Positions 3,477-29,170 of a stretch of DNA of 29,170 bases are shown piece by piece. The stretch is taken from IMG/VR virus record IMGVR_UViG_3300031787_000010, positions 137,429-166,598 of that record; one strand, given 5' to 3'. Under the pieces are notes generated by a model. It searched no databases, was not told the DNA's origin, and saw only the letters and a list, made by a program, of their open reading frames with translations. The position numbers were made by a program, and so were the translations under genes. Within the stretch, counting starts at the first letter, position 1. The number at the start of each line of letters is the position of its first letter. This DNA comes from a virus (taxonomy: Duplodnaviria > Heunggongvirae > Uroviricota > Caudoviricetes).

Positions 3477-3479
3477 ATA

Positions 3480-3743: not shown

Positions 3744-3746
3744 ATG

Positions 3747-5585: not shown

Positions 5586-5587
5586 AA

Positions 5588-9514: not shown

Positions 9515-9517
9515 TCA

Positions 9518-9892: not shown

Positions 9893-9897
9893 ATGGA

Positions 9898-10047: not shown

Positions 10048-10060
10048 CGACTTATGGATT

Positions 10061-10840: not shown

Positions 10841-10846
10841 ATGTAA

Positions 10847-10852
10847 CTCCTT
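10847..10852 (-). promoter_or_regulatory. Shine-Dalgarno site (AAGGAG) of the gp26-like gene
   Basis: 6 nt upstream of ATG 10840. Comparable sites: AGGAG at 25956-25960, AGAGG at 14080-14084 and 23797-23801. Confidence 0.8.
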
Positions 10853-10870
10853 ATTAATATAAAATATTTA

Positions 10871-10897
10871 CTGCTGATATTAATAAATATCAGTCAG
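10871..10897. promoter_or_regulatory. Inverted repeat CTGATATT-aata-AATATCAG overlapping the helicase stop and an ATATTTAT motif
   Basis: Perfect 8-bp arms at 10874-10881 and 10886-10893, extendable by 3 bp with one bulge. Function unknown. Confidence 0.35.
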
Positions 10898-13003: not shown

Positions 13004-14074
13004 TTATTTTACCTCAACTGAAATCTTCTTTTTCTTTGTTGCTGTCTTACTCTTATTAGCTTTTGGAAGTTGAGTACTTTGTAATTTTAATTGCGTCTCA
13101 GCGATACGCAACTTCAACTCTAACTCCTTCACTTTATTTTCCATTTCTATTTCTTTGGAATTTACAGCAACTTGCTGGTTGGTCGATTGTGCGTTTTGAG
13201 AAGATTCTAGATTACGTTGATCTTGAATCTTTTTTGTCAGTTCCCAGTATATAGGCGGCGTTTCAAACTTACCAATTCGTTTATCAACAAATTCCCGTAC
13301 ATTTGGTTTGGTTCTATGCGTGGACTGTTGTTTACCTTCCGCGTTAGTATGAAATGGACACTTTTTACTTGAAGCAGTTGGATCACCCATAAGCGATCCA
13401 TCCTTTACTTCAGCCGGATATACTCCTCTAAAGTAGTGTTTCTGCCATACATCTGCTGAATGGTGACCCGCTCGTTGTTCGGACATATATTTTAATCTCG
13501 AAACATTCCAATTCCAGTAATCATCGTGAAATTCTTTGAATTCTGGATCGTGGAGCGAACGAATTTCTGCTTCCGTATTATCAAACACCGTCAAGTCGAT
13601 AGGGAAAATAAGCGCAATAGGATCTCCTATTTTTACTTCAAAAGATCCAGGTTGTGTAAATCTCCAATTTAGAGTAAAGGAATATCTTAACCAGTGCGCT
13701 TCTACTACCCCAGACAATGGTATAACGTTTGGCACAGGTGTGTTCGGTGCACCAGTAACGTATAGTCCGTATGGATATTCCATTTGGAATAACCATCCAG
13801 CATGCCAAGTTAAGGTACCTTCTCCAAAGTGAGACGATGGAGTTCCATAACCATCGTGGTGTTTTATTTTTACACCAGAAGGCGCATTATTTCCATCCCA
13901 CTCTGCTGTGAAGTGTGCCTCTGACAATATTTCCCACCCAAATGAATTAGCCATAGATAATGGTAAACATCTGTACGGGTTTTTATTTACTGCATCGTCC
14001 ATCCAAGGACGTTTAGATCCAGCAGGCTGTAGTCTAAACGGTCTGTCGGATGCGGGATATGCTATCATTTTCAT
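13004..14074 (-). CDS. DUF6065-family protein with a C-terminal coiled-coil, Lys-rich extension
   Basis: RPWMD...PYRCLPLSMANSFGWEIL, SHFGEGTLTW, PLSGVVEAHW...FTLNWRFT motifs match my recollection of DUF6065. AGAGG SD at 14080-14084. Confidence 0.7.
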   Translation of the reverse strand: MKMIAYPASDRPFRLQPAGSKRPWMDDAVNKNPYRCLPLSMANSFGWEILSEAHFTAEWDGNNAPSGVKIKHHDGYGTPSSHFGEGTLTWHAGWLFQMEYPYGLYVTGAPNTPVPNVIPLSGVVEAHWLRYSFTLNWRFTQPGSFEVKIGDPIALIFPIDLTVFDNTEAEIRSLHDPEFKEFHDDYWNWNVSRLKYMSEQRAGHHSADVWQKHYFRGVYPAEVKDGSLMGDPTASSKKCPFHTNAEGKQQSTHRTKPNVREFVDKRIGKFETPPIYWELTKKIQDQRNLESSQNAQSTNQQVAVNSKEIEMENKVKELELKLRIAETQLKLQSTQLPKANKSKTATKKKKISVEVK

Positions 14075-14095
14075 AGTAACCTCTTTATTTTAAGT

Positions 14096-14716
14096 TTATT
14101 TTAAATCATCTATTTTGATTAATATCATAGATCGATATGGTTCAGACGTATCTTCATCAATACAATATATAGGGTTTAAATAAAATGGATTTATTTCCAT
14201 ATTAATTTGTCTAAAATCAGAGTCTAAAATATCTTTATTTTCTATAAGATTCCTTCTACTACTGGTTAGCAAGTATGTACTTCCACTATTTTTTATGTTC
14301 TCTAGGGACTTTTTTATATTCTCATAAGAAAGATGTATAAAACAATCTCGCACTATAACTAAATCCTTTTTAGGTAAAGGATCTTCTGTAATATCTAAAT
14401 GTAGAAATTCATGCTGTGGATAATTTAGTCTGTTGTCATTGACGAATACTTCGGCAATGTCCGCTCCGACGTATTCGATTCCCGTCAAATTGACTTCTTT
14501 CATCCAATGAAAGTCACCACACGGTATGTCTAGAATTGATTTGATATTAAATGTATCAAATAATTTTGGCAATGCATTTCTTAAAGGTTTTGTAGATTCT
14601 AATGTACTACCACCACCACTTCGAGTTTCTATGCATCCCCACCCATTTGCCGTTGGATTCATAGCATGTACAGCGTGTATTATAATCTCAAATTCGTGTT
14701 TAAGTTTTTCGTTCAT
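14096..14716 (-). CDS. Class I SAM-dependent methyltransferase
   Basis: W...ETRSGGGST, SILDIPCGDFHWM (motif I), YVGADI, DLVIVRDCFIHL. Start moved from 14767 to ATG 14716, which forms an ATGA overlap with the upstream stop. Confidence 0.85.
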   Translation of the reverse strand: MNEKLKHEFEIIIHAVHAMNPTANGWGCIETRSGGGSTLESTKPLRNALPKLFDTFNIKSILDIPCGDFHWMKEVNLTGIEYVGADIAEVFVNDNRLNYPQHEFLHLDITEDPLPKKDLVIVRDCFIHLSYENIKKSLENIKNSGSTYLLTSSRRNLIENKDILDSDFRQINMEINPFYLNPIYCIDEDTSEPYRSMILIKIDDLK

Positions 14717-15243
14717 GCAAAACTCCAATGCATGAATAGTTGAACAACATGCTGGTGTGGTTCGCAAATTAAATCATCACGCCAATGTGTCATTGTTGTT
14801 CCTAACATCATACCACCATCACCTCGACCAATATTCAAAGGAACTTGATTATTTGTCTTATCAATACACCACAATGGCCATTCCTTATCTAAACTATTAA
14901 ATAGCGTAATAGACATAGTGTAATCAAGACCTTGACGATCAACGTGTTTGTGTAAAGTTCCACCATTATAATAAATGCGTCCAAACGAATTAGCGGGAGT
15001 CATTTTAACTCCCAACTCGTCTTGCAATCTGTCTGTTAATGATCGCAATGCGGCCTCAAACTCTGGATGGTTTCCACCATACGAATTATCATAAAACTTT
15101 TGGTCACCACCTTCATAAACTAAACGATCTGTAGCTTTCATGTCATACATCAACTGAGCAAAGTCGTCGCACTGCTGGTGTGTCAGTACGTCTTTAATGT
15201 ATGCATACCCATGTCGAGCAAAAAATTCTGATTGGTTGTTCAT
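14713..15243 (-). CDS. 2-oxoglutarate/Fe(II)-dependent oxygenase-like protein
   Basis: 176 aa; GYAYIKDVL N-terminus, RIYYNGGTLHKHVDR (HxD), THWR (distal His), QLFMHW. Double-stranded beta-helix oxygenase family common in phages; substrate unknown. Confidence 0.75.
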   Translation of the reverse strand: MNNQSEFFARHGYAYIKDVLTHQQCDDFAQLMYDMKATDRLVYEGGDQKFYDNSYGGNHPEFEAALRSLTDRLQDELGVKMTPANSFGRIYYNGGTLHKHVDRQGLDYTMSITLFNSLDKEWPLWCIDKTNNQVPLNIGRGDGGMMLGTTMTHWRDDLICEPHQHVVQLFMHWSFA

Positions 15244-16796
15244 AACTGTGATCCTCTGTTTTTTTGTATAATATAATCTTCCAATATAACGGCGTCCATC
15301 TCTTTACTATCTAGAACTGTGAGTGCTTCTTTATACGTATTCAAAATTGGTTTTCCTGCCACATTGAACGAAGTATTTAATAATACACCTATTCCAGTTT
15401 TATTATGCATTTCTGTTAATAAATTATATAAAAATTCATTTTGTTTTTTAGTTACAGTTTGTACTCTCGCTGTACCATCCACGTGCACTATTGCTTCTAG
15501 TTTATTTTTATATTCATCTTTTACTCTTGGACAAAAACTCATCCAACGGCTTTCAGTATTCCATTCAAAATATTTGTTAACATCTTCTAGACGGACCACG
15601 GGAGCGAAGGGACGATAATATTCTCTACCTTTTACTTTAGCATTCAATATATCTTTTATTCCAGTAATAGCAGGATTACACAATATACTTCTATTTCCTA
15701 GTGCTCTTGGACCATGTTCACATCTATCTCGTACCACACCTACAATTTTACCAGATATAATATAGTCTGCTAATTTAGCGATGTCAAGTACTTGTGCCGA
15801 TCGTTCGTGTGCAATTCTTATTAATTCATGTCTATCCCATACTACGGGCCCAGCATATGTACAATCAATTGGTTCTGTTGGTTTGATAGTAGATGCTAAT
15901 AATCCAACCGCCAACCCACAATCATTTGGATTAGGTGGAACAAATACGTTTCTAGTTCTAGCAAGTTTGGTATTATTTAATATATTAAGCCCACACCCAC
16001 CAACTAAAATTAAGGGTAATGAAGGGTATTCCTTTAAAAATGGCGTTATCTCTTCTTCAAAAAGTTGCTCAAAGACAAATTGATTTGAAGCAGCTAAATC
16101 TTTAGCGTCTTGGCCAGTGAATCTAAATTCCTCTGGAATGTCAAGAACCTTCCTTATTGTAGTCACCGTTTCCGGTATTTTCCCATCATCCCCGCTATTA
16201 TATATAGTATGTAATTTATTGACGAATTCTTCCGTGGCGTTTCCGTAGTTTGCAAACCCCATAATTTTTCCGGCGTACACCAAGTTTCCCCAAAACGGTT
16301 CTTCCTTTCGTATATCTTCAATATAATGTGCAACCAATCCATATGGAACAGCTAAATCTCTTTTACCAGAATATATTTTTGTAATACCCGCGCGCTTATC
16401 ACCTATAAACACATTGAAAAATCCTTCATCTGAACCACCATCAGCTGATACTATTAACGCATTACTATATGGGGATTGGTATAATCCAGAGTATGCGTGA
16501 GCTGTGTGGTGTGGTAACCATGTGTATTTTTTAGCGGGAAATATTTTATAGTATTCTTGGTGCACGGAATTATATATTACGCTTTCATATTCCGTTACTC
16601 CATATTTTTGATTAAAGTAGTTTTTTATTTCGTGAATCACTGCTATATTATATGGCTCTCTTATGTTATAGTAAAACCATAATGCGCAATTTTTTATTGA
16701 AGTAAATCTTTCTACTTCCACTACTTCTAAAAGTTTGTCATCTTTTGATATAGCTATTGTTGCATTATGAGAACCAAACATTCCTATATTAAACAT
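15240..16796 (-). CDS. O-carbamoyltransferase (NodU/CmcH/TobZ family), copy 1
   Basis: HHTAHA, DGG, GKIMG, GGCGLN, EHGPRALGNRSIL, RPFAP, HVDGTARVQTV, LLNTSFN. Start moved to ATG 16796 (MFNIGMFGSHNA), which aligns with the N-terminus of the paralog. Confidence 0.92.
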   Translation of the reverse strand: MFNIGMFGSHNATIAISKDDKLLEVVEVERFTSIKNCALWFYYNIREPYNIAVIHEIKNYFNQKYGVTEYESVIYNSVHQEYYKIFPAKKYTWLPHHTAHAYSGLYQSPYSNALIVSADGGSDEGFFNVFIGDKRAGITKIYSGKRDLAVPYGLVAHYIEDIRKEEPFWGNLVYAGKIMGFANYGNATEEFVNKLHTIYNSGDDGKIPETVTTIRKVLDIPEEFRFTGQDAKDLAASNQFVFEQLFEEEITPFLKEYPSLPLILVGGCGLNILNNTKLARTRNVFVPPNPNDCGLAVGLLASTIKPTEPIDCTYAGPVVWDRHELIRIAHERSAQVLDIAKLADYIISGKIVGVVRDRCEHGPRALGNRSILCNPAITGIKDILNAKVKGREYYRPFAPVVRLEDVNKYFEWNTESRWMSFCPRVKDEYKNKLEAIVHVDGTARVQTVTKKQNEFLYNLLTEMHNKTGIGVLLNTSFNVAGKPILNTYKEALTVLDSKEMDAVILEDYIIQKNRGSQL

Positions 16797-17571
16797 ATTT
16801 TCGTAAAACCTTATTGTGAAATTGTATGTACTCTTCCGTACTACTGATTCTAAATCTATACGCAAAATACTTTTCATTTGCTATTATGTCATCGACGTAA
16901 TCTACTAACGGGCCACCGTTATCGCCTAAACTTGTAGCGGATGTTTTTACATCTTGATGTACTTCGTCCCAGACGGCATAATTTAATTTATTAAATAGTA
17001 TTACTCCCACACCAAGATCTTCCATAGATAACGGATACGGTAAAGATAAATATTCTTCTTTATTGTTTACTAATTGTTGTACACAATCTTTTGATAGATA
17101 ATTAAAACTTCCTCCGCAAAAATAATACTCATTGTTGTACATATTTCGTGCACCATCATATTGTTTATCTTTTCTTTCCAGTGAATCTAGAAATTTGTGC
17201 ATCTTTTTAATATCAAGGTAAGTCGTATTACAAATTCGAACTATATAATCAAATTCTAAATTATTAAGACACCACTCATATGCTATGATAAGTTTTTGAT
17301 TACGTGGATCTGTAAGAGGATTGCTTACTACATCTTGTACCCCACACACAAGAATATTATTACCGTGGTTATCATACATAATCGCAGAACCCTTGGCGGG
17401 CGTTCCACTTAAATGTGAATACGGTTTATCTTCTAAATCATAACCTCCGTAATAATGAATAACTGTTACGTCTGGGTGTTTTACTCTTGCCCATGTACTT
17501 TTTGCTAACGCATCTATTGCATTATATTCAAAATGCCACGTTGATTGGTTTAGTACTATAATTTTAGTCAT
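16789..17571 (-). CDS. GT31 (beta-1,3-galactosyltransferase/Fringe)-like glycosyltransferase, divergent
   Basis: KLIIAYEWCLNNLEFDYIVRICNTTY...YDG...FCGGSFNYLSKDCVQQL...EDLGVG follows the GT31 layout (K..a..w....dy, G.g..lS, EDv.G). The DxD position reads CNT. Confidence 0.5.
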   Translation of the reverse strand: MTKIIVLNQSTWHFEYNAIDALAKSTWARVKHPDVTVIHYYGGYDLEDKPYSHLSGTPAKGSAIMYDNHGNNILVCGVQDVVSNPLTDPRNQKLIIAYEWCLNNLEFDYIVRICNTTYLDIKKMHKFLDSLERKDKQYDGARNMYNNEYYFCGGSFNYLSKDCVQQLVNNKEEYLSLPYPLSMEDLGVGVILFNKLNYAVWDEVHQDVKTSATSLGDNGGPLVDYVDDIIANEKYFAYRFRISSTEEYIQFHNKVLRKYV

Positions 17572-17572
17572 A

Positions 17573-19132
17573 TTAATCCTTTTTTATATAATAATTTTCC
17601 AAAATCAACCCATCCATTTCCACATTTTCTAGCATCCAGACAGCATCTCTGTATGTATTCAGAATTGGTTTTCCTGCGATATTGAAGGATGTATTTATTA
17701 ATACACCGACTCCTGAAAGTCGTTTTACTTCACCTAATAGGTGATACAGAAAAGAATTTTGCATTTCTGTTACTGTTTGCAATCTAGCCGTGTTATCGAT
17801 ATGTGTGACAGATGGTAAAATTGATCGGTATTCCGTTTTTACTCTTGGGCTAAATGTCATCCAACGTGCTTCACCTTCCCAATCAAAATAAGTATTTGCA
17901 TCTTCCAATCTAGTTACGGGTGCAAACGGACGATAATATTCTCTATGTTTGACTTTTGCATTTAGTATATCTTTCATACCTACAGTTGGCATGCAAAGAA
18001 TACTTCTGTTTCCCAATGCCCTAGCCCCGTGTTCAGAACGACCACGAACAATTCCAATAATTTTTCCAGAAATTAAATCTTCTGCTAATTTTGTGAAATC
18101 TACTTCGGTTGCATTATATTTGTTTACGTACTCATGTAATAAATGTCTATCCCAAACTTCAGGTCCGATATAAGTGGAATCAAATGCATCCGATGGCTTT
18201 AAAAACCCTAACATAAATCCTAAACTCAATCCTCTATCGTCTGGATTTGGCGTTACATGCGTCTTTGTTAATTTATTTACTTGTGTGTTATTCAGTACAT
18301 TTAAAGCACATCCACCAGTTAAACATAATTTGTCATCACTACCTATGATATCTTTGTATGATAACTTTTCAAACAATTGCTCAAACGCATATTGAGAAGT
18401 TCTGACTACATCCACTTCTAACTGGCCAGTTAACTCATCTGGATAACCTAATTTTTTATAATTGTTATACTTGTCCTCGTAAGTAGAATGATGTCCTTTG
18501 TAGTATTCTAAAAAATTATTTATGTTATTGTGTAAAATTTTACCGTATGCTGACAATCCCATCAACTTACCCGAATGTACCAGATATCCTTGAAATCTAT
18601 CTTGTTTGCTCAATGAACTACAATAAAATCCAATTTGTGCATATTTTTCTCCGATATTATAATCAGGTTCCGTTCTATATAATGTGACTCCATTCTGTCT
18701 AGTTGCTTTATAAAAATTAAAACACCCATCATTACCACCACCATCAAAACTAATAATTGTTGCTTCTTTTAAATTAGTTTGATAAAATGCATTATACGCG
18801 TGTCCTTCTTGGTGACCCATCTCTATTAAATTTTTTGCGTTAAAAATATCTAAAACACTTCCGTGTGCAGACCAATATCCACCCGTGAGTACTTCCAAAT
18901 CTGTAGGGTTACATATTAGATTTTGGTATTTGTCTGCACCATATTTTATTTTGAAGTATAGAAGTATTTCTTTTACAGCATGTATAGGATTATGAGTGGT
19001 AGGTAGATACCACGTTAAACTTATATTTTTAACGTTTAGCCATCTTTCCAATTCCACAACTTCTAGAATTTCATCATCTCGACTTATCGTAAATGACGCA
19101 TTGTGTCCTGTGTATATTGATAAATTAAACAT
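17573..19132 (-). CDS. O-carbamoyltransferase (NodU/CmcH/TobZ family), copy 2
   Basis: 519 aa; HQEGHA, FDGGG, GKLMGLSAYG, LTGGCALN, EHGARALGNRSIL, RPFAP, HIDNTARLQTV, LINTSFN. Confidence 0.92.
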   Translation of the reverse strand: MFNLSIYTGHNASFTISRDDEILEVVELERWLNVKNISLTWYLPTTHNPIHAVKEILLYFKIKYGADKYQNLICNPTDLEVLTGGYWSAHGSVLDIFNAKNLIEMGHQEGHAYNAFYQTNLKEATIISFDGGGNDGCFNFYKATRQNGVTLYRTEPDYNIGEKYAQIGFYCSSLSKQDRFQGYLVHSGKLMGLSAYGKILHNNINNFLEYYKGHHSTYEDKYNNYKKLGYPDELTGQLEVDVVRTSQYAFEQLFEKLSYKDIIGSDDKLCLTGGCALNVLNNTQVNKLTKTHVTPNPDDRGLSLGFMLGFLKPSDAFDSTYIGPEVWDRHLLHEYVNKYNATEVDFTKLAEDLISGKIIGIVRGRSEHGARALGNRSILCMPTVGMKDILNAKVKHREYYRPFAPVTRLEDANTYFDWEGEARWMTFSPRVKTEYRSILPSVTHIDNTARLQTVTEMQNSFLYHLLGEVKRLSGVGVLINTSFNIAGKPILNTYRDAVWMLENVEMDGLILENYYIKKD

Positions 19133-19144
19133 AACCGTTTTATG

Positions 19145-20068
19145 TTACAGAGTCTTAATTTGTTTATTTTTGAAATCTATTCCTGAAAATTGCTCGTACT
19201 CATCTAGAGTTCGATGTGTACCCAGACCGTATTTACCCAGATCACCACCTTCAAATAACCTTCGAAGTCGTTCCATCGCAACTTTATGTCTATACTGTCC
19301 AAATTCCGGTGGTAGTACGGTAAAGTGTTTTTTGTTTGGTTCGTTATGTGCTCTATGCCACGATACTATTCTATCGGGCGTGTATATATCATATCCTTTT
19401 GTATACGATCTTACGGCTAAAGCAAATTCTTCACCAGTATAATAATGTAATGGATCTTGTTCCACTTCAACTACCCATTGGCCGTCTGAAAATATAAACC
19501 CACCATATAGTACGGGGACTCTTACATTTTTATATCCAGTACGCTGTTCATTTTCATATCCACCGTATTCAATCCAGTATTGACTAGTTATATTTTTTAT
19601 TTTAGGTATTTGTATTTTATCCATATCAAATATATTACTAAACAAATAGTCTATACCATATTCGTCATTTCTAGAGTATGATGGAGATAAATATGAAATT
19701 ATAGGTTTTGGTGATATGTTTCTTAAATTTTCTATATTTCGTATTAACACGGAGTCCCAATGTTTTATAACCCGAGTGTGTGAATCTATTTGTAATGCAT
19801 ATCTTTCATTTGCATAATATTTCTGTGCTATATTTCTTGCCCAACAACCACCTCTTGATTCTGTCCAATGGTGCAATTCTAAATGTATTGGATACTTGCC
19901 GAGTAAATGATTGATGCAGTTTTCATTCGTCTCTGGCTCTTCATCAAATTGGTGCACTACAGAAAATACTAATCTTTGAGGATTTTCGGCTTTACTAATT
20001 AGGTCTAGTATGGTATGTGGTAGTTCATAATCACGAAAACTTGCAATTGCTATAAAGATTTTTTCCAT
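19145..20068 (-). CDS. GT60-like polypeptide alpha-GlcNAc transferase (Skp1-Hyp Gnt1 / trypanosomatid mucin OGNT family)
   Basis: IFIAIASFRD.EL..TI, S+G.CWAR, LQIDSH.R....WD, GGFIFS, YYTGEE, RSYTKGYDIY.P...WH are the hallmarks of the GlcNAc transferase (PF11397-type) family. Confidence 0.82.
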   Translation of the reverse strand: MEKIFIAIASFRDYELPHTILDLISKAENPQRLVFSVVHQFDEEPETNENCINHLLGKYPIHLELHHWTESRGGCWARNIAQKYYANERYALQIDSHTRVIKHWDSVLIRNIENLRNISPKPIISYLSPSYSRNDEYGIDYLFSNIFDMDKIQIPKIKNITSQYWIEYGGYENEQRTGYKNVRVPVLYGGFIFSDGQWVVEVEQDPLHYYTGEEFALAVRSYTKGYDIYTPDRIVSWHRAHNEPNKKHFTVLPPEFGQYRHKVAMERLRRLFEGGDLGKYGLGTHRTLDEYEQFSGIDFKNKQIKTL

Positions 20069-20070
20069 TT

Positions 20071-22842: not shown

Positions 22843-23788
22843 ATTGTTCCCGTATCCAGTTAAATGTACGAGTCATTCCTTCTTCTAATGTAATAGCAGG
22901 TTCCCAATTTAACAATGCCTTTACTTTGTCATTATGTGAGTTTCTTCCACGTACTCCCAACGGTCCTTCAATATGTTTACGTTGGAGTTTGACACCAGCT
23001 GCATTTTCAATAATCGTAATTAATTCATTAACGGACACCATTCGGTCTGATCCAATATTAAATGCCGATTGATGTGGACTATCCATTACACGAATTGTTC
23101 CTTCGACTGCATCATCAATATACAAAAACGACCGTGTTTGCTCACCATCACCCCACACTTCAATCGTATCAGAGTTAGTGTGTAAAGCATGTGCGACTTT
23201 TCTACAGAGCGCGGCCGGTGCTTTTTCTCGTCCACCTTGCCACGTACCTACTGGACCGTAGACATTGTGGTATCGGACAATACGGGTTTCAATTCCAAAA
23301 TCTTCGGTGAAATGACGACACATGCGTTCCATAAACAGCTTTTCCCAACCATACCCATCTTCGGGATCGGCTGGGTATTCTGTACCTTCAATTAAAGGTT
23401 CTGGTTCTGTCGTGTTTTGTTTATACACAGGATAGACACAAGCGGTCGATGCGAAGAGAAACTTCTTTGCTCCGTTTAGGTGTGCTGCTTTTAATGTATT
23501 GGTGTCTGGAATAATGGATAACATACACAATGTCTTATTGTGTTCGATAAATCCCATTCCACCCATATCACACGCTAAATGATAGACTTCATCAATACCT
23601 TGCGTGGCGTTTAGAGCAACATCGTAATCCGTTAAGTCTCCGACGATGTTTTCTGCTGACTCGGTAATTTGATACCATTTATCAAACGGCTTTTTATCAA
23701 TTGCTCGTACTGTATATATTTCTGCTAATTTCTTTACTATATGTCCGGCAATAAACCCACCGGCTCCCGTAACCAATATTGTTTTCAT
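22817..23788 (-). CDS. GDP-D-mannose 3,5-epimerase (extended SDR)
   Basis: GAGGFIA, LACDMGGMGFI, YGWEK (YxxxK), GTWQGGREKAPAALCRK, WGDGEQTRSFLYIDD, GVRGRNS are characteristic of GME. Start at ATG 23788 is preferred because the AGAGG SD lies 8 nt upstream. Confidence 0.88.
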   Translation of the reverse strand: MKTILVTGAGGFIAGHIVKKLAEIYTVRAIDKKPFDKWYQITESAENIVGDLTDYDVALNATQGIDEVYHLACDMGGMGFIEHNKTLCMLSIIPDTNTLKAAHLNGAKKFLFASTACVYPVYKQNTTEPEPLIEGTEYPADPEDGYGWEKLFMERMCRHFTEDFGIETRIVRYHNVYGPVGTWQGGREKAPAALCRKVAHALHTNSDTIEVWGDGEQTRSFLYIDDAVEGTIRVMDSPHQSAFNIGSDRMVSVNELITIIENAAGVKLQRKHIEGPLGVRGRNSHNDKVKALLNWEPAITLEEGMTRTFNWIREQYGLYHSTN

Positions 23789-23882
23789 AACCATTTCCTC
23801 TTAATTATTTTTCAGTATTACAATTTAGTATATTCGTACTGTACTATAATACATATTTACGTTTTTACCTCACCAATTGATT

Positions 23883-25949
23883 TTACTCACACGAACTGTT
23901 CGATCCGCCGCAATCAATATAATTTGTACACGATAATACATATTCTGTACCATTACAAGTGTACAAATCTTGGCCCACACATTGAGTAGCTCCAAAAGTA
24001 CATGTTGCTGGTGATGGTGTTGGTGAAGGTGTTTCTGGTGAAGGTGTTACCGGTGAAGGTGTTACCGGTGAAGGCGTTGGTGCTACGGGTGGGCATGGTG
24101 TATTTTGACATTGCCCAGCACAGCAATATGCACACGGTGAACAATCTTGAGCATCAACACATGGTATTGTAGGACATTGTATTTCAGGCGAAGGCGTCAC
24201 TGGCGAAGGTGTTTCCGGCGAAGGCGTCACTGGCGAAGGTGTTACTGGTGAAGGCGTCACTGGCGAAGGTGTTACTGGTGAAGGCGTCACTGGCGAAGGT
24301 GTTACTGGTGAAGGCGTCACTGGCGAAGGTGTTACTGGTGAAGGCGTCACTGGCGAAGGTGTTACTGGTGAAGGCGTCACTGGCGAAGGTGTTACTGGTG
24401 AAGGCGTCACTGGTGAAGGCGTCACCGGCGAAGGCGTCACCGGTGAAGGCGTCACCGGCGAAGGTGTTACTGGTGAAGGCGTTACGGGCGCAGGCGTTTT
24501 TGTTGCAGACGGCGTAATACTTGGAGTAGTAGTAATACTTGGCGTAATAGATGGTGTAATAGAAGGCGTTCTAGTAATACTTGGTGTTCTAGTAATAGAC
24601 GGCGTAGTGGTAATACTTGGAGTAATACTTGGTGTTCTAGTAATAGACGGCGTAGTGGTAATACTTGGAGTAATACTTGGTGTTCTAGTAATAGAAGGCG
24701 TAGCGGTAATACTTGGCGTTCTAGTAATAGAAGGTGTAGTGGTAATAGACGGCGTTGTCGTAATACTTGGCGTAATACTTGGCGTAGTTGTTATTGATGG
24801 AGTTACTGTAGTACTTGGTGTTTTAGTAATTGAAGGGGTAGCAGTGACACTCGGTGTTACTGATGGCGTTACTACTCCTTGTGTACACGGCCAACACGTT
24901 CCGAGAGTAAGTGCTTCAGCAACTGCTGTACATCCACCACCAGTAGGATCTGGATAATTATTACAGCTTGGAACTGTAGTACACTCACAAAATACATAAT
25001 TAATTGTGGTAGCAGAAGGTGTTACCGATGGAGTTGGTGTATTAGTTGGTGTCGTAGTTACCGATGGGGTTGTTGTTATTGAGGGCGTTACCGTTGGGGT
25101 AACAGTTCTAGTAGTTGTTATCGACGGCGTTATTGATGGAGTTGCTGTTATTGATGGAGTTGCTGTTATTGATGGTGTAGTTGTTATAGAAGGTGTAAGA
25201 GTAGGCGTTGGTGTTACAGATTGATTTGTTGTTTGTGTTATTGATGGAGTTACTGTTCTAGTTGGAGTTATAGACGGTGTTGTGGTAATAGATGGTGTTG
25301 TGGTAATAGATGGTGTTCGTGTTAAACTTGGTGTAACAGTTATTGACGGTGTAATTGAAGGTGTAGATGTTATAGTTGGAGTAACCGTTATTGACGGTGT
25401 TGTTGTGATAGAAGGTGTTACTGTCACAGACGGTGTAATAGATGGTGTTCTAGTAATACTAGGCGTAGTAGTAACAGAAGGTGTGGTCGTAATAGACGGC
25501 GTAGTTGTGATACTCGGTGTTCTAGTGATAGAAGGCGTTCTGGTAACTGATGGTGTAGTTGTTATAGAAGGTGTTACAGTTACACTTGGGGTAACCGACG
25601 GCGTAGTTGTTACTGACGGTGTTACTGTCATCGTCGGGGTAGCTGTCGGTGTTTTTGTTGGGGTTATGGATGGAGAGGGAATTGGATAACATAAAAAATA
25701 ATTTTCTCTACCAGAATGCGGCGGTACTGATGGGTATGTGTCATAGGCATCCGTGACCGTAGTTAACGCATTATAATAACCAGGCGGACAACTTGTAGCT
25801 TGAATTCCAGGAGTACCTTTTGGTCCTATAACACCAACCAACGCACGTGCTGCTACAACAGATGGATTGTTTACTAATGCGTAAGCAGAACTAGCTGTTT
25901 GTGCGAAGGAACCCGTAGAAGGAATACCGAATGGAAAAAATACAGCCAC
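23883..25949 (-). CDS. Mucin/extensin-like Thr-Pro-Ser repeat protein with Cys-rich modules; probable virion surface or fibre protein
   Basis: 688 aa; GTG start with AGGAG SD 6 nt upstream. Two long blocks of TPS(I/V)T(T/R/A/V) hexapeptides, 20 tandem (V/E)TPSP pentapeptides, and three Cys-rich modules. The virion role is inferred. Confidence 0.8.
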   Translation of the reverse strand: MAVFFPFGIPSTGSFAQTASSAYALVNNPSVVAARALVGVIGPKGTPGIQATSCPPGYYNALTTVTDAYDTYPSVPPHSGRENYFLCYPIPSPSITPTKTPTATPTMTVTPSVTTTPSVTPSVTVTPSITTTPSVTRTPSITRTPSITTTPSITTTPSVTTTPSITRTPSITPSVTVTPSITTTPSITVTPTITSTPSITPSITVTPSLTRTPSITTTPSITTTPSITPTRTVTPSITQTTNQSVTPTPTLTPSITTTPSITATPSITATPSITPSITTTRTVTPTVTPSITTTPSVTTTPTNTPTPSVTPSATTINYVFCECTTVPSCNNYPDPTGGGCTAVAEALTLGTCWPCTQGVVTPSVTPSVTATPSITKTPSTTVTPSITTTPSITPSITTTPSITTTPSITRTPSITATPSITRTPSITPSITTTPSITRTPSITPSITTTPSITRTPSITRTPSITPSITPSITTTPSITPSATKTPAPVTPSPVTPSPVTPSPVTPSPVTPSPVTPSPVTPSPVTPSPVTPSPVTPSPVTPSPVTPSPVTPSPVTPSPVTPSPVTPSPVTPSPVTPSPETPSPVTPSPEIQCPTIPCVDAQDCSPCAYCCAGQCQNTPCPPVAPTPSPVTPSPVTPSPETPSPTPSPATCTFGATQCVGQDLYTCNGTEYVLSCTNYIDCGGSNSSCE
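24187..24486. repeat. 20 x 15-bp tandem repeat encoding (V/E)TPSP, containing 6 perfect 30-bp copies (24221-24400)
   Basis: The unit aaggcgtcactggcgaaggtgttactggtg occurs exactly at 24221, 24251, 24281, 24311, 24341 and 24371; flanking units differ at wobble positions. Confidence 0.95.
24574..24695. repeat. Perfect 48-bp tandem duplication (about 2.5 copies) within the hexapeptide repeat region
   Basis: gtaatacttggtgttctagtaatagacggcgtagtggtaatacttgga at 24574 and 24622, with a partial copy at 24670. Confidence 0.9.
25010..25680. repeat. Degenerate ~18-bp coding repeats (TPSITT/TPSVTV/TPSITR)
   Basis: The protein-level hexapeptide repeat has diverged synonymous positions; a second block lies at about 24500-24875. 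Confidence 0.9.
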
Positions 25950-25962
25950 AAAATTCTCCTAA

Positions 25963-26157
25963 TTATGTTGGAACAACAATTAACGTTGGTGAAGCATCTA
26001 CTTCTTTATACGGGTCACCAGGCAAACCTAGTAAATTTTCAGCGTAAGCGGCAAGTGCCGCGGTGGTAGGTGTATTTGCCGATGCAATAGTTACACTTGC
26101 CGAAACTGCGAAAGAAGTACTAATTGGTAATCCTAATGGTATAAATTGTATACTCAT
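25963..26157 (-). CDS. Small hypothetical protein, probably virion-associated
   Basis: 64 aa; FIPLGLPISTSFAVSAS motif shared with both neighbours; tight packing. Confidence 0.7.
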   Translation of the reverse strand: MSIQFIPLGLPISTSFAVSASVTIASANTPTTAALAAYAENLLGLPGDPYKEVDASPTLIVVPT

Positions 26158-26166
26158 ATGCCGACT

Positions 26167-26415
26167 CTAGTTAAAATTGCAAACTTCTTTTAACGAAGGA
26201 TTTGCTCTTAACTGTAAATACTGTTCATAGGTTATTTTACAAATTCCAGGAACTCCAAGATCGCCTTTTGATCCAGAAGTACCCGACTCTGCGAAAGAAG
26301 CTGTAAATACGTACATCAAGTATTGTGCATTATTTGCGTAAGACGAAGATAAGGCAAATGATGAGGTGTATAAACTTCCAGAAGCGTATGGATAAAAAGC
26401 TGAGCTAGTAGTCAT
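26167..26415 (-). CDS. Small hypothetical protein, probably virion-associated, with a short Gly-X-Y stretch
   Basis: 82 aa; FYPYASGSLYTSSFALSSSYA...TASFA...GSKGDLGVPG. Confidence 0.7.
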   Translation of the reverse strand: MTTSSAFYPYASGSLYTSSFALSSSYANNAQYLMYVFTASFAESGTSGSKGDLGVPGICKITYEQYLQLRANPSLKEVCNFN

Positions 26416-26418
26416 AGT

Positions 26419-27306
26419 TTAATCTTCTAGTGAAAATACATGTAAGTTTACAGTTGGAGTTATAGGAGAACCCGAAGATGATACGTTCTGCATATAATAA
26501 TAAACAGAATTTATTCCTTCCATTTTTGTTGGATCTGTGATTAATTCCGATAAGTCGTTTCCCATATTTTGTAAATTAGCTCCTATGATTTTAGGAGTAA
26601 AATAAACTATATTACTTCCAGAGATAACAGTATCTATTATTAATCCAATTGATTCCGATGGTTCAGTTGCAAATAATCTATTTCTTTCACTAACATTATA
26701 TATACTACCGCTATTATTATACATTCTAAATCTAACCATGTGGCTAGAGTTTGCTAATGAAGCACTTACCATTATATAAGTTTTTGGTACAGTTGGTGAC
26801 GTAATACTGGTAAATGTACCACTTGCATACGCTAACGCCGCAATAGTCGAAGAAGGTGTTATTTGTATTAATCTACGATTATTTTCTGTGTACGATGTAT
26901 TAATCGCAGGAGTTATAGATGTATCTTCTATTAAAAGCCTATTAATTTTAAAGGAGGAACCCGAAGGCGTGCATCTATAATACGTTAATGGTGTAGTTGC
27001 CGAATTCGTATGTCCTATTGACGCTGGGTTTATCGTATATACTGTATTACTTAAACTCATACTGTAGTCACCGACAAGTGCTACGGTTGGTGGTACGGTT
27101 GAACCAAATATACGGGAAATTTCAGTAGAATCGTCTCTACTCTGAATTGTGTCATAGATTCGTAATCTAGCAGGTTGTGTAGATTCTATACTTAATATAA
27201 GAAAAGAACCCCCAAGGGCAACCGAACCACTACCGACCGTATCGGTAACTGTAATAACGTCTCTGGTAATTTTTGCCCCGGCTTGGACCTGTTCTTTTAA
27301 TCCCAT
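26419..27306 (-). CDS. Hypothetical beta-rich protein with an internal duplication, probably virion-associated
   Basis: 295 aa, Ser/Thr/Ile-rich; two copies of an R(L/F)R(I/M)Y...E.(S/N)R.F...P motif. Confidence 0.7.
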   Translation of the reverse strand: MGLKEQVQAGAKITRDVITVTDTVGSGSVALGGSFLILSIESTQPARLRIYDTIQSRDDSTEISRIFGSTVPPTVALVGDYSMSLSNTVYTINPASIGHTNSATTPLTYYRCTPSGSSFKINRLLIEDTSITPAINTSYTENNRRLIQITPSSTIAALAYASGTFTSITSPTVPKTYIMVSASLANSSHMVRFRMYNNSGSIYNVSERNRLFATEPSESIGLIIDTVISGSNIVYFTPKIIGANLQNMGNDLSELITDPTKMEGINSVYYYMQNVSSSGSPITPTVNLHVFSLED

Positions 27307-27362
27307 AAATCCACGTTGTTAAAGATACACTAGTATAAATATAAAACTATATGTCTTTTACA

Positions 27363-29170
27363 TTAGGATTCCTTCCTCAATTCACTCTGATAAAAATTAA
27401 ATCTATTGTGTTCTATAGGTGACGCAAGGAAAATTCCACTAGTTAATTCGTTTTTTCTGGTTTGTTGGAATATATGACTCATCCATGTTTGTTCGTATGG
27501 TCTAGCCCACTTTGTGTTTAAAAACATTTTTTGATTACCTTCTTTACTGACTATTTGTGGCCAATTACTGTAATAAATCTGCCCTTTAATATAAGGAGTT
27601 TCATCCACAATGTGAATTGTATCAAAAACAGTTTTTGGAGCATTTGGATCAGTTCCGTGTTCAGGTAACTTATTATAGTTAGGCCAAACTTCATTTCTAA
27701 CTGATTGTGGTACATTATACCAAGCCCACTGCACACTATTATCACCGTAAAATTCGGAAAAAGACATTTTAAAGAAATCAAATTTTTCTTTTACCATAAT
27801 TTTAACGAGCTTTTCATATAAGTTTGGTATATGTGATCTAAATCCATTTCTACAGTTCTTACCAATAAAAGACTCGTTGTTAATATGCATATCGTCTTCA
27901 AAAAACATATAAAAATCAGCGTCGGATTCGCTAAAATGTTCTGCTATAAATTGTCTACCACCACATACACCTAAATTCTCTCTATGAATTTCCTCGAACC
28001 CATACAGTTCACATAACTTATCGTATTGTTCAAATAAACTAGTATCCGTAGAGTTATTTACTAATATTTTTCTACATCGTGTAAACATAGTGTCATCAGC
28101 CGATTGTATGGACTTCACGACAGATTCAAATTGTTCTGTAGAATTAAATCCAAGAACATACAGATTTACTTTAGCAGTTTTTGGTGTTAGTTCTTTCGGC
28201 GGTAAATTTTTTATAAGTTCGTCTACGTCCTTTAATTTTTCAAAAAACGGCCATACCAAACCGTCGCCTGAAAGTTCAAATCTATATATTGTTTCTGGAT
28301 ATAGATGTGCCATTACAGCAAATATACTTTCTTCCGTACCCATAAAATTACTTTCTAGGGTTTGTCGTAAAAGATTATAATAATTACTATTTGCCGTTGC
28401 TATTGAAGTTTTGGAACCACCAAAAAATCCACCACGACACACATATTTTAAATGTTGTGTTTTGGCATATCTTTCAATATCAGTACGTGGAAAGCCATGA
28501 ACTTCATATCCATCCTCATACGGATATGATAAGAATATAAACGCATCAACTTCTTCGGTTAATTTTGGTAGATTTTCTAAAACGACATCGTGATGAAAAT
28601 ATCCTGGATGTACTGTCGTGGAGATGCCTGCATCTAACCAATAAAAATAATTTGTATTAAATGGATTACTGATTGATGCATCGTTCAGTAAAAACATCTT
28701 GCTCATAACTACCGGATTATAAAACTCTAAATTTGCTTGTGGAGAGTTTTCTAACCATGCTGCCTGTTTCTTCCAATTTTCAGTATTTCTAATTTCTTGT
28801 ACTTTTTCGTAGAAGGGAAACCAAGTTTTTAGTTCTTCTAACTCCATAACTTTGACATGAGTATTTTTTCTTGATCTATGCTTCCAAACAAATTCTTCAT
28901 CTTCTTTTGCTACATAAATGTATAAATTTGAAGGAGTTTTGAGTAACTCTGCAAATTTGTCAAGATAATAAGAATACGGACGTTTAAAATCATCACCGAG
29001 TGACCCTCTACCTAAATTCCAAAGAGCGGTTACTATGGTCGTATCAGAATTTTCTAAAGTTTTGAATTCTTCAACAGTATTGTCTACTTGTTGTGAAGAT
29101 TCTTGCTCAGTTTTAGGAATCTCGTCTATCGTGAATCGTAAAACTTTATCTCCGAGATTTATAACGAAAG
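27363..29170 (-). CDS. HtrL/YibB (WlaTC)-family glycosyltransferase fused to a C-terminal GT-A-like domain; 5' truncated
   Basis: The frame stays open from 28847 to the window end (…DTTIVTALWNLGRGSLGDDFKRPYSYYLDKFAELLK…). HtrL motifs: SKMFLLNDAS..NPFNT.YFYWLDAGI, RGGFFGGSK, MGTEESIF. The second domain has NLGVCGGRQ...DFYMFFEDD. Confidence 0.8.
   Translation of the reverse strand, partial: FVINLGDKVLRFTIDEIPKTEQESSQQVDNTVEEFKTLENSDTTIVTALWNLGRGSLGDDFKRPYSYYLDKFAELLKTPSNLYIYVAKEDEEFVWKHRSRKNTHVKVMELEELKTWFPFYEKVQEIRNTENWKKQAAWLENSPQANLEFYNPVVMSKMFLLNDASISNPFNTNYFYWLDAGISTTVHPGYFHHDVVLENLPKLTEEVDAFIFLSYPYEDGYEVHGFPRTDIERYAKTQHLKYVCRGGFFGGSKTSIATANSNYYNLLRQTLESNFMGTEESIFAVMAHLYPETIYRFELSGDGLVWPFFEKLKDVDELIKNLPPKELTPKTAKVNLYVLGFNSTEQFESVVKSIQSADDTMFTRCRKILVNNSTDTSLFEQYDKLCELYGFEEIHRENLGVCGGRQFIAEHFSESDADFYMFFEDDMHINNESFIGKNCRNGFRSHIPNLYEKLVKIMVKEKFDFFKMSFSEFYGDNSVQWAWYNVPQSVRNEVWPNYNKLPEHGTDPNAPKTVFDTIHIVDETPYIKGQIYYSNWPQIVSKEGNQKMFLNTKWARPYEQTWMSHIFQQTRKNELTSGIFLASPIEHNRFNFYQSELRKES

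Follow-up and report, generated by a model that had tools for sequence, protein, structure and literature searches.

A mucin-like fibre encoded within an operon of soluble, protein-glycosylation-type enzymes in an uncultured freshwater T4-like phage

In a large uncultured freshwater T4-like phage, the gene for a mucin-like fibre lies within an operon of soluble enzymes of the protein-glycosylating type, belonging to families known from protists and plants, and the phage therefore most likely sugar-coats its own fibre in the bacterium. We analysed a stretch of 29,170 nucleotides (the window; positions 137,429 to 166,598 of IMG/VR record IMGVR_UViG_3300031787_000010), in which 13004–29170 forms one co-oriented, tightly packed array. 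As an earlier sequence-only reading had described, the genes of this array are co-oriented; all lie on the minus strand, and from the epimerase gene to the DUF6065 gene neighbours overlap or are separated by gaps of 1–26 nt. Encoded on both sides of a 688-aa repeat protein (TPS688) are two GT60 (PF11397) domains, an O-FucT domain, an HPAT-family domain, a GT31/Fringe-like protein and an HtrL-like protein, together with two TobZ/NodU-type O-carbamoyltransferases, a methyltransferase, a small 2OG oxygenase, a DUF6065 protein and an epimerase. No transmembrane segments were found in any enzyme or in TPS688, and the best identity of the GT60-type phage proteins to anything cultured is ~30% at most. 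The cluster is incomplete on one side, where the contig ends within the HtrL gene. We consider it probable, and no more than that, that the fibre stalks are O-glycosylated in the cytoplasm and the glycans then carbamoylated and methylated: the analysis shows the genes present, their catalytic motifs and assigned folds, and the synteny with the statistics on it, and the evidence is wholly computational, with no glycan, hydroxyproline or virion proteome data, no biochemistry and no cultured relative.

The candidate acceptor, TPS688 (23883..25949, minus strand), is a mucin/extensin-like fibre of 27% Thr, 20% Pro and 14% Ser (61% in sum), which agrees with its earlier description as a protein made mostly of repeats of these residues. 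It contains 78 TPS triplets and 21 VTPSP units, and its 22 Cys residues fall into four clusters. An N-terminal anchor module, a short G-X-Y run, TPS(I/V)T(T/R) repeats and a Cys module are followed by further TPSIT repeats, (VTPSP)x21 and two more Cys modules. Its DNA consists of tandem arrays of 15, 18, 30 and 48 nt, and translation starts at a GTG codon with the ribosome-binding site AGGAG. Two further proteins of the same genome carry TPS688 repeat units (three in all). Two short fibre paralogues are encoded upstream: p64 (25963..26157, minus strand), taken from the list of open reading frames (ORFs) and overlooked in the earlier gene inventory, which aligns with 60–62-aa ORFs at the same position in L009, L022, L063, L077 and G001, and p82 (26167..26415, minus strand), in which alignment revealed an N-terminal FYPY module and four G-X-Y triplets and which has homologues in relatives. 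The N-terminal module is common to TPS688, p82, p64 and the collagen-like fibre proteins of relatives. The adjoining p295 (26419..27306, minus strand) is a conserved tandem beta-sandwich protein with homologues in 31 helicase-anchored loci, and is probably a structural partner in the fibre cassette; its model (pLDDT 73) has two beta-sandwich domains with generic fold matches only. A PHM-like enzyme was ruled out for p295 because conserved His or Met residues are absent. A late-type promoter motif (TATTTATA on the gene strand; 27334..27341, minus strand) lies ~28 nt upstream of the p295 start. TATAAATA has its single exact occurrence in the window there, and a 7-mer of the motif recurs at 10883–10889, directly 5′ of a T4-baseplate-like gene. 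No terminator-like site was found between the fibre gene and the enzymes. TPS688 is a member of a paralogous fibre family, located behind a late-type promoter and adjoining baseplate genes.

Upstream of the cassette is a putative HtrL/YibB-like glycosyltransferase (27363..29170, minus strand; PF09612, E = 1.2e-17, and TIGR02192), the 5′ end of which is missing at the contig end. Its C-terminal half is uncharacterised, contains an EDD motif, matches phrog_842 weakly (E = 0.0045) and had no match in the PDB or Pfam; homologues of 601–794 aa occur in L079, L022 and G001. On the other side of the fibre, a GDP-mannose 3,5-epimerase (GME) homologue (22817..23794, minus strand; phmmer E = 4.7e-91 to Arabidopsis GME 2c59, with the next SDR class only at 5e-29) probably supplies GDP-L-galactose, and is fused to an O-FucT domain in L164. 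The following gene encodes a 923-aa transferase (20071..22842, minus strand) with HPAT-family (residues 1–290), O-FucT (~303–590) and GT60 (~640–900) domains and the motifs D113-P-D115, H484-IRRND and D726-A-H, a fusion that recurs in at least 25 viral contigs. The O-FucT domain scored 99 bits in Pfam (cut-off 31.5), and the HPAT domain scored 27.6 bits against PF23452 (cut-off 23.9) and 0.94 in the Atlas, with a TM score of 0.8 to Chlorophyta HPAT proteins. The stand-alone GT60 (19145..20068, minus strand; phrog_24687) is a polypeptide GlcNAc-transferase homologue with invariant D95-x-H97 and H238; PF11397 scores were 169 bits for this protein and 109 bits for the fused domain (cut-off 21). 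Of the transferases listed in the sequence-only reading, HtrL, O-FucT, both GT60 domains and the GT31-like protein stood, whereas the 'GT-A-like' entry rests on a weak PHROG match only and the 'GT96-like' domain is, by the tools available, HPAT-family (GT95-type); GT96 membership itself could not be assessed.

The remaining enzymes follow downstream, all on the minus strand. Both O-carbamoyltransferases exceed the curated thresholds of their families; copy 1 (17573..19132) belongs to the NodU/TobZ family (PF16861 and PF02543), and copy 2 (15240..16877; Carbam_trans_N and C in Pfam) matches TobZ, NovN and GdmN in the PDB (E = 1e-36 to 5e-48); a homologue in L007 aligns with copy 2 from residue 28 on, and the true start is probably at 16796. 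Between them lies the 260-aa GT31/Fringe-like glycosyltransferase (16789..17571), which has no match in Pfam, an Atlas feature score of 0.98 and TM scores of 0.72–0.76 to GT31 clusters. The 176-aa 2OG/Fe(II) oxygenase (14713..15243; phrog_2954, no match in Pfam) has an invariant H100-x-D102...H153 triad, and its predicted fold (pLDDT 95) is most like those of PHD-type prolyl 4-hydroxylases (P4H), with Pseudomonas putida P4H (4j25, TM 0.77) and Dictyostelium PhyA (6t8m, TM 0.72) as the top PDB matches. A class I SAM methyltransferase (14096..14767; phrog_3382, E = 2e-44; weak Pfam methyltransferase matches) probably starts at 14716, in an ATGA overlap with the oxygenase stop. The epimerase, both carbamoyltransferases, the methyltransferase and the oxygenase were all borne out, by Pfam, PHROG or fold. 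The array ends with a DUF6065 protein of unknown function (13004..14074; PF19541, E = 2e-64) with a Lys/Glu-rich tail and no match in PDB and profile searches, which always adjoins the 176-aa oxygenase (L005, L007, L009, L014, L164 and L165); most loci with the tri-domain fusion lack this pair. Assignment of the domains to LPS/capsule or DNA-modifying families would have counted against glycosylation of the fibre; protein-directed families were found instead (GT60, HPAT, P4H-like oxygenase and O-FucT with HxRRxD). The HtrL, carbamoyltransferase and PF10250 families are not protein-specific and also occur in polysaccharide and small-molecule pathways.

Among helicase-anchored loci, all eight with a Thr/Pro fibre carry GT60, which was found within 10 kb in none of the ~25 loci with other fibre types. 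No relative was found to keep the enzymes without a Thr/Pro protein, an outcome that had been named as a possible refutation: both are present in the window, L009, L164, L165, L005, G001, L010/11, L022, L063, L071/77 and L079, a statement limited to relatives for which this region is visible. In a wider set of 80 GT60 loci from diverse viral contigs (upstream ORF scored in 63, downstream in 71), the ORF directly upstream of GT60 was Thr/Pro-repeat-rich in 17 of 63 cases (27%; gap 40–96 nt), compared with a background of 36/833 (4%) and 0/71 downstream neighbours (Fisher p = 1.4e-8). This upstream pairing is spread over 10 of 38 clusters at 70% identity, involves at least seven unrelated kinds of Thr/Pro protein and, mapped on the GT60 tree, needs no fewer than 12 changes; within the helicase lineage, one or two ancestral events may account for the pairing. 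The other 46 of the 63 GT60 genes have no Thr/Pro-rich ORF directly upstream, and only ~1/3 of tri-domain fusion loci have one within 10 kb. Across relatives, the enzymes encoded nearby vary with the chemistry of the fibre: collagen-like fibres are accompanied by a PF13640 oxygenase and GT2, a poly-Thr fibre by a sulfotransferase. Our literature search found no paper describing the pairing of GT60 with Thr/Pro proteins.

The enzymes might instead build or alter a non-protein glycan (host LPS, capsule, cell-wall polymer or lipid-linked oligosaccharide) and so serve auxiliary metabolism or superinfection exclusion; the Thr/Pro fibre would then be a mere neighbour because both lie in a variable host-interaction region beside the tail genes. 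HtrL/YibB originates from an E. coli LPS-core locus, the substrates of NodU/TobZ-type carbamoyltransferases are oligosaccharides and small molecules, the island differs greatly in content among close relatives, the same genome has a second large glycan island of unknown target, and the GT60 of XacN1 adjoins a carbamoyltransferase with no obvious Thr/Pro neighbour. We nevertheless regard this as unlikely: to our knowledge, every GT60 and HPAT enzyme characterised to date uses a polypeptide substrate, no enzyme of the array has a membrane anchor, lipid-carrier, flippase and polymerase genes were not seen in the window, and co-location alone hardly explains an adjacency to unrelated Thr/Pro proteins that is directional (27% upstream, 0% downstream).

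Somewhat less likely still, the fibre could be real without being the substrate, and the GT60, HPAT and P4H-like enzymes could modify other phage or host proteins, for example a translation factor or receptor, to take over or protect the cell. Bacterial PPHD acts on EF-Tu, and the oxygenase is structurally closest to a P4H that hydroxylates this protein, that of P. putida; moreover, the majority of GT60 genes in the wider sample do not adjoin a Thr/Pro ORF and the oxygenase/DUF6065 pair is missing from most fusion loci. This is countered by the GT60 adjacency statistics (17/63 upstream versus 36/833; 0/71 downstream), by the reuse of TPS688 repeat units in three proteins of one genome and by the co-variation of fibre type with enzyme set. 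T4-type phages glycosylate DNA, and the oxygenase and transferases might likewise decorate hydroxymethylated bases to evade restriction, with which a sub-threshold TAGT (TET-associated GT) match within the GT60 domain (21.8 bits, cut-off 27.5) and the weak match to phrog_842, annotated as an HMC glucosyltransferase, would agree. We consider such DNA hypermodification very improbable, given that no ThyA-type dCMP/dUMP hydroxymethylase, TET/JBP or C5-methyltransferase was found in the 166.6-kb record (the TET/JBP search had no positive control), that the 176-aa oxygenase has a P4H-like rather than a TET/JBP fold, and that the Thr/Pro synteny would remain unexplained.

Glycosylation of the fibre has partial precedents. 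In the Skp1 pathway of Dictyostelium and Toxoplasma, the prolyl hydroxylase PhyA acts before Gnt1 (PMC3515798). The phage shares with protist GT60 systems two PF11397 domains with a DxH...H motif, solubility (Gnt1 is likewise soluble), a P4H-like oxygenase with a PhyA-like fold and, as in trypanosome and Dictyostelium mucin repeats, a Thr/Pro-rich candidate acceptor. It differs in that the enzymes are phage-encoded and would act in the bacterial cytoplasm with an unknown sugar, that hundreds of repeat sites on a fibre would replace the one hydroxyproline of Skp1 and that most GT60 loci lack this oxygenase. The plant and algal extensin/arabinogalactan-protein pathway (P4H, HPAT GT95, SGT1 GT96 and GT31 Hyp-GalT) is resembled in the HPAT-family domain, the GT31-like protein, the P4H-like oxygenase, SP/TP repeat blocks such as (VTPSP)x21 and the homologue of GME, an enzyme best known from plants; unlike in plants, there is no Golgi anchor, no SPPPP motif and no identified UDP-arabinose pathway, and most phage HPAT-fusion loci lack the oxygenase. 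Chlorovirus PBCV-1 has a prolyl 4-hydroxylase and Mimivirus has glycosylated fibrils and collagen; giant viruses similarly decorate surface fibres with their own hydroxylase, sugar-nucleotide and transferase genes, a likeness that extends to the phage relatives with collagen-like fibres, PF13640 oxygenase and GT2, but these viruses are eukaryotic and use other enzyme families, whereas the phage host is bacterial. In Gram-positive bacteria, GtfA/GtfB glycosylate serine-rich-repeat adhesins, also by O-GlcNAc-type cytoplasmic glycosylation of long Ser/Thr stalks by enzymes encoded beside the substrate; there, a GT4-family initiator and a dedicated export system are used, and the product is an adhesin of the bacterium, not part of a virion. 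Mycobacteriophages, too, encode transferases that glycosylate structural proteins of the same phage within the host cytoplasm, although the glycans are reported to be on C-terminal tails of actinophage capsid and tail-tube subunits (Freeman et al. 2023, Cell Host Microbe 31:1216; via PMC12619734). In the present T4-like phage, long mucin-like stalks of accessory fibres would be the acceptor, and the enzymes belong to the GT60, HPAT, O-FucT and GT31 families with added carbamoylation and methylation.

Both computational checks support the proposal that the phage glycosylates its own fibre; the hydroxyproline ('extensin') branch is only suggestive, as it rests on one small correlation and on the structural resemblance of the oxygenase to P4H. 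Which protein accepts the sugars, what the sugars are, in what order the enzymes act and where in the virion the fibre sits and attaches are all inferences. In the proposed sequence, the late-expressed cassette of p295, p82, p64 and TPS688, set within the operon of soluble glycan enzymes, would yield the 688-aa fibre in the host cytoplasm late in infection. The small P4H-like oxygenase may act first, hydroxylating prolines of the SP-type block. The two GT60 domains would start O-linked chains on the Thr/Pro/Ser stalks, probably with alpha-GlcNAc on Thr/Ser by analogy with the protist enzymes; the O-FucT-like domain would add a GDP-sugar, probably L-galactose from the adjacent epimerase, and the HPAT-family, GT31-like and HtrL-like transferases would add or extend further sugars, before the two O-carbamoyltransferases and the methyltransferase cap the glycans. 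The decorated fibre would then enter the virion through the N-terminal module that it has in common with its short paralogues, where it may form a stiff, protease-resistant, hydrated stalk with Cys-rich terminal knobs.

The window takes up the final 29 kb of a linear IMG/VR record of 166.6 kb (completeness estimate, 89%), and its minus strand carries all of its long open reading frames (ORFs). Positions 1–12773 hold an SNF2 helicase and a tail/baseplate module with a VanY-domain protein, a LysM protein, large unnamed proteins, a beta-flower protein and a T4_baseplate protein. At 3–3476 (minus strand), the 1158-aa tail/baseplate protein with the VanY D-Ala-D-Ala carboxypeptidase domain is followed by the 87-aa LysM protein; the two probably form the part of the baseplate that pierces the cell wall. 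Between 13004 and the contig end, co-oriented genes (all on the minus strand) are packed with gaps of 1–21 nt or overlaps, some of the ATGA type, the exception being the 88 nt between the epimerase gene and that of TPS688, a 688-aa Thr/Pro/Ser-repeat fibre protein. ORF and Pfam checks bore out the sequence-only reading's gene inventory of this array (13004–29170), with three adjustments. A domain described as GT96-like belongs to the HPAT family by every tool used (Pfam and Atlas); the HtrL protein (27363–29168, open at the contig end) has the HtrL_YibB half assigned to it (Pfam), but its C-terminal half, described as GT-A-like, has no Pfam or PDB match; and a 64-aa ORF (p64; 25963–26157; ORF list) had been overlooked. 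PADLOC defence models gave zero matches, and megablast and tblastn searches with the region, the fibre and p295, a beta-sandwich protein, found no match in 50,697 phage records.

Thr, Pro and Ser make up 27%, 20% and 14% of TPS688 (23883–25949). The protein contains 78 TPS triplets and 21 VTPSP units, its 22 Cys residues fall into four clusters, and its gene is built of 15/18/30/48-nt tandem arrays. An N-terminal module (M-x-F-[FY]-P-[FLY]-G-x-P-x-[ST]-S-S-[FY]-A...TAS[YF]A, then 2–4 G-X-Y triplets) is common to TPS688 and two short paralogues, the 82-aa p82 and p64, the latter lying between p82 and TPS688 and consisting of the module and a short G-X-Y run. Counterparts of p64 (60–62 aa) occupy the same position in L009, L022, L063, L077 and G001, and in some related lineages the module, again at this position, continues as long collagen-like G-X-Y or short Cys-containing proteins. 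We infer, without proteomic data, that TPS688 belongs to a set of paralogous late fibres of the virion type. A complex prediction of p82, p64 and the TPS688 N terminus (score 0.02) is not evidence either way. The repeat units TPSIT and VTPSP are reused in two further proteins of the window's own genome (G000): a 681-aa paralogue (C1:2303–4348, minus strand; L166) that shares the repeat units and C-terminal Cys knot of TPS688 and comes immediately behind an 874-aa fibre-like protein, and a 384-aa protein (C1:20244–21398, minus strand; L167) whose InlB-type B-repeat domains are flanked by VTPSP blocks. Just upstream of the fibre set, p295, conserved in 31 related loci, is a tandem beta-sandwich with generic fold matches only (PHM, CBM and comovirus coat; TM approximately 0.3); a PHM-like enzyme role was ruled out, as the copper/metal ligands are not conserved. 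The exact motif TATAAATA (gene strand, TATTTATA) occurs once in the window, approximately 28 nt before p295, and its 7-mer core recurs at 10883–10889, immediately ahead of the baseplate gene. No terminator-like site was found between the fibre gene and the enzyme genes. Over the fibre gene (24001–26000), GC skew is strongly flipped (+0.33 to +0.42, plus strand) because of the ACN/CCN/TCN codon content, and long spurious ORFs (VGV.../LVKAS...) on the opposite strand or in other frames mislead gene callers, as in the related locus L165.

Two domains pass the GT60 (PF11397) threshold of 21 bits: a stand-alone protein (19145–20068; 169 bits) and the C-terminal domain (109 bits) of a 923-aa HPAT/O-FucT/GT60 fusion (20071–22842; Pfam). 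The family's polypeptide GlcNAc-transferases use UDP-GlcNAc as donor and attach alpha-GlcNAc to a Thr or Hyp (hydroxyproline) residue of a polypeptide. The GT-A metal-binding motif, D-x-H and a distal His (D95, H97 and H238), is invariant in ten sequences including both window copies, and D726-A-H is present in the fusion. The HPAT domain (PF23452) passes marginally (27.6 bits; cut-off, 23.9), matches HPAT clusters by Atlas features (0.94) and Chlorophyta HPAT proteins by structure (TM 0.78–0.81) and has an invariant D113-P-D115 motif. HPAT enzymes (CAZy GT95) use a Hyp acceptor and UDP-L-arabinofuranose as donor; CAZy GT96 is the peptidyl-serine alpha-galactosyltransferase SGT1. The O-FucT domain (PF10250; 99.2 bits; cut-off, 31.5) retains the HxRRxD donor-binding motif (H484-I-R-R-N-D). 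GDP-fucose protein O-fucosyltransferases act on Ser/Thr of folded, Cys-rich EGF/TSR modules, and PF10250 also includes polysaccharide-directed plant enzymes. A 260-aa protein (16789–17571) resembles GT31/Fringe by Atlas features (0.98) and structure (TM 0.72–0.76 to GT31 clusters), with no Pfam match even at E = 10. At least 25 viral contigs conserve the HPAT–O-FucT–GT60 architecture; a further GT60 and a carbamoyltransferase usually come after it, and approximately one-third of these loci have a Thr/Pro ORF within 10 kb. Among the Atlas clusters for the HPAT part (residues 1–290), a Pseudomonadota family joins an HPAT-like domain to PqqD, a peptide-recognition element of RiPP pathways, a hint that bacterial HPAT-like enzymes may glycosylate peptides. 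No 19-residue hydrophobic segment that could act as a membrane anchor occurs in TPS688 or in any of the enzymes, so any chemistry would be cytoplasmic.

The remaining enzymes include a class I methyltransferase (14096–14767; Pfam) and an SDR epimerase (22817–23794; Pfam) that matches Arabidopsis GDP-mannose 3,5-epimerase (GME; 2c59) over residues 6–318 at E = 4.7e-91, against 5e-29 or worse for other SDR classes; by sequence comparison, it is a close homologue of the plant enzyme. In the related locus L164, the epimerase is fused to an O-FucT domain. GDP-L-galactose is the 6-hydroxy analogue of GDP-L-fucose, and we infer that the GME homologue supplies it to the O-FucT domain. Two proteins (15240–16877 and 17573–19132) carry both Carbam_trans_N and Carbam_trans_C (Pfam) and group with TobZ, NovN and GdmN (E = 1e-36 to 5e-48); they are assigned by homology to the NodU/CmcH/TobZ O-carbamoyltransferases.

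A GT60 profile search of viral contigs returned at least 584 relatives, and we analysed the best 80 loci. Immediately upstream of GT60 on the same strand, the ORF was Thr/Pro-repeat-rich in 17 of 63 cases, compared with 36 of 833 other ORFs of these loci (odds ratio 8.2, Fisher P = 1.4e-8 for the best 80 of at least 584 relatives); immediately downstream, the count was 0 of 71. The gap between the Thr/Pro ORF and GT60 is 40–96 nt, and a looser 60-residue window admits seven further upstream neighbours as Thr/Pro-rich. The pairing occurs in 10 of 38 GT60 clusters (70% identity), and the N-terminal or globular parts of the upstream proteins are of at least seven unrelated kinds, indicating that the recurring element is the repeat and not a protein family. 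On the GT60 tree, the 17 positive loci require at least 12 changes (five shuffles gave 12–17); the pairing is thus not the property of one clade. For the window GT60 domains, polypeptide alpha-GlcNAc-transferase activity is inferred, and this upstream enrichment (17 of 63 viral loci versus 4%) is only indirect evidence for it. Among cultured phages, only four jumbo phages have a GT60 homologue (XacN1, Xoo-sp13 and Stenotrophomonas CM1/RAS14). In Xanthomonas phage XacN1 (L163; AP018399.1, 219791–223508), the homologue (ORF334) is directly followed by a 765-aa carbamoyltransferase (ORF333); this GT60/carbamoyltransferase pairing is common to XacN1 and the window, making the cultured phage a possible experimental handle.

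We also collected 77 related loci through the SNF2 helicase gene and inspected approximately 10 kb upstream of it. Eight have a Thr/Pro-rich ORF (320–474 aa) at the fibre position (L009, L010, L011, L022, L063, L071, L077 and L079), and all eight have GT60; GT60 is absent from this upstream stretch of approximately 10 kb in approximately 25 helicase loci whose fibres are of other types. In three loci (L007, L012 and L014), GT60 is present and the locus is cut by contig ends. The sequence-only reading would have been refuted by relatives that keep the enzymes without a Thr/Pro protein, and no such relative was found, given the eight paired loci and the resolution of two apparent exceptions. L165 seemed to lack a Thr/Pro ORF upstream of its epimerase, but the database calls there are wrong-frame or antisense readings, and a Thr/Pro-repeat gene is present in frame 2, stopping immediately ahead of the epimerase. 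L008, whose helicase is the closest relative, seemed to lack both GT60 and fibre within 10 kb, but both lie approximately 30 kb upstream on the same contig, in the order two GT60 genes, HtrL, p295, p82, p61 and a 423-aa Thr/Pro fibre, ahead of a larger enzyme island. The pairing appears again in L005, found through its O-FucT domain and set in other genomic surroundings, where a 582-aa Pro/Thr protein directly precedes the genes for the epimerase, O-FucT, oxygenase and DUF6065.

Fibre chemistry and neighbouring enzymes appear to change together among the relatives, as judged from loci with collagen-like and poly-Thr fibres. Beside collagen-like fibre paralogues (L044:3620–7628 and L031), DUF6445, two GT2 and a PF13640 (P4H-type, that is, prolyl 4-hydroxylase-type) oxygenase lie directly upstream of p295, and beside poly-Thr fibres (L078:907–9735) the cassette is accompanied by a sulfotransferase, a subtilase and a 2OG oxygenase, with no GT60 within 10 kb. 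The DUF6445/GT2/PF13640 set recalls collagen hydroxylation and glycosylation. Fibre-region proteins of L020 (2107–6521) contain long G-P-T collagen-like runs and His-rich repeats (AAHTD(I/N)T... and HSNIA...), and one of them ends in the TPS688 Cys knot (50% identity over residues 650–687).

Whether Hyp is involved turns on the 176-aa 2OG/Fe(II) oxygenase (14713–15243; phrog_2954 match). Its model (pLDDT 95) is a double-stranded beta-helix, and the HxD...H iron triad (H100, D102 and H153) is invariant across 17 homologues. The top PDB structure matches are 4j25, 4iw3 and 6t8m (TM 0.72–0.77), the best folds being the PHD-type prolyl 4-hydroxylases Pseudomonas putida PPHD (TM 0.77) and Dictyostelium PhyA (TM 0.72), of which PhyA acts before the GT60 enzyme Gnt1 in Skp1 modification (PMC3515798). 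However, other 2OG oxygenases (SnoK, EctD and AsqJ) score nearly as high by fold, and no sequence-level match was found in Pfam (including PF13640) or PDB; 'P4H-like' is therefore a statement about the predicted fold only, and peptidyl-proline activity is no more than a possibility. DUF6065 (13004–14074; Pfam) always directly follows the oxygenase (L005, L007, L009, L014, L164 and L165) and has invariant His, Glu and Trp positions; it has no detectable relative of known function and no PDB match, and kinship with 2OG oxygenases was rejected (hhalign probability of 0.2% against the oxygenase profile). The oxygenase/DUF6065 pair is confined to the helicase-adjacent clade and L005 and is absent from most HPAT-fusion loci, so Hyp is not a general requirement. 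In the five oxygenase-adjacent fibres, a second block is enriched in the dipeptides Ser-Pro, Ala-Pro or Pro-Pro (32–110 of them), compared with 2–20 in six fibres without the oxygenase, a pattern that is suggestive of a Hyp branch in a comparison that is small and phylogenetically non-independent. In such a branch, the P4H-like oxygenase would convert prolines of the SP/AP/PP block to Hyp, HPAT-family and/or GT60 domains would then glycosylate Hyp, the O-FucT-like domain would add L-galactose made by the plant-type GME, and the glycans would end up carbamoylated and methylated. More widely, each phage lineage may match its fibre chemistry with its own modification enzymes (Thr/Pro with GT60, collagen-like with PF13640 oxygenase/GT2, and poly-Thr with sulfotransferase). 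That the phage has a complete Hyp-based, extensin/Skp1-like pathway in the bacterial cytoplasm together with such lineage-specific pairing is a conjecture that we consider unlikely, if worth stating.

The less specific claim of the sequence-only reading, that the phage O-glycosylates its own Thr/Pro fibre in the host cytoplasm, is supported by synteny, enzyme families and motifs as far as computation allows; no glycan has been shown on the virion, and there is no isolate or proteome. The enzymes could instead act on a non-protein glycan, as the presence of HtrL and carbamoyltransferases and the variable island content would allow, but this leaves unexplained the directional Thr/Pro–GT60 synteny, the absence of membrane-associated steps and the protein-directed enzyme families. 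DNA hypermodification, which would also have refuted fibre glycosylation had the domains fallen into DNA-modifying families, has only two sub-threshold matches in its favour, and no ThyA-type hydroxymethylase, TET/JBP or C5-methyltransferase was found (the TET/JBP search lacked a positive control). Other proteins cannot be excluded as targets of the enzymes.

To our knowledge, phage virion glycosylation is known experimentally from actinophages only, with other enzymes and at other sites. The literature searched contained no description of phage GT60, phage HPAT or DUF6065, nor of these enzyme families together with a mucin-like fibre acceptor and GME, carbamoyl, methyl and P4H-like functions. 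With fibre glycosylation as the reading, the phage cassette would work like the cytoplasmic repeat-glycosylation systems Skp1/Gnt1 and serine-rich-repeat adhesins and like mycobacteriophage virion glycosylation (Freeman 2023, as cited in PMC12619734).

If fibre glycosylation is true, soluble enzymes compatible with the bacterial cytoplasm would be at hand for making mucin- or extensin-type glycoproteins in Escherichia coli, and many orphan glycosyltransferase islands of aquatic phages would gain a candidate acceptor. Families thought to be eukaryotic (GT60, HPAT, O-FucT, GT31, GME and P4H-like) would serve phage fibres, and the origin of 'eukaryotic' protein-glycosylation families would become a question. 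Abundant freshwater T4-like phages would then build mucin-like, densely O-glycosylated fibres, with relevance to protease resistance, adhesion to surfaces and particles, and evasion of recognition.
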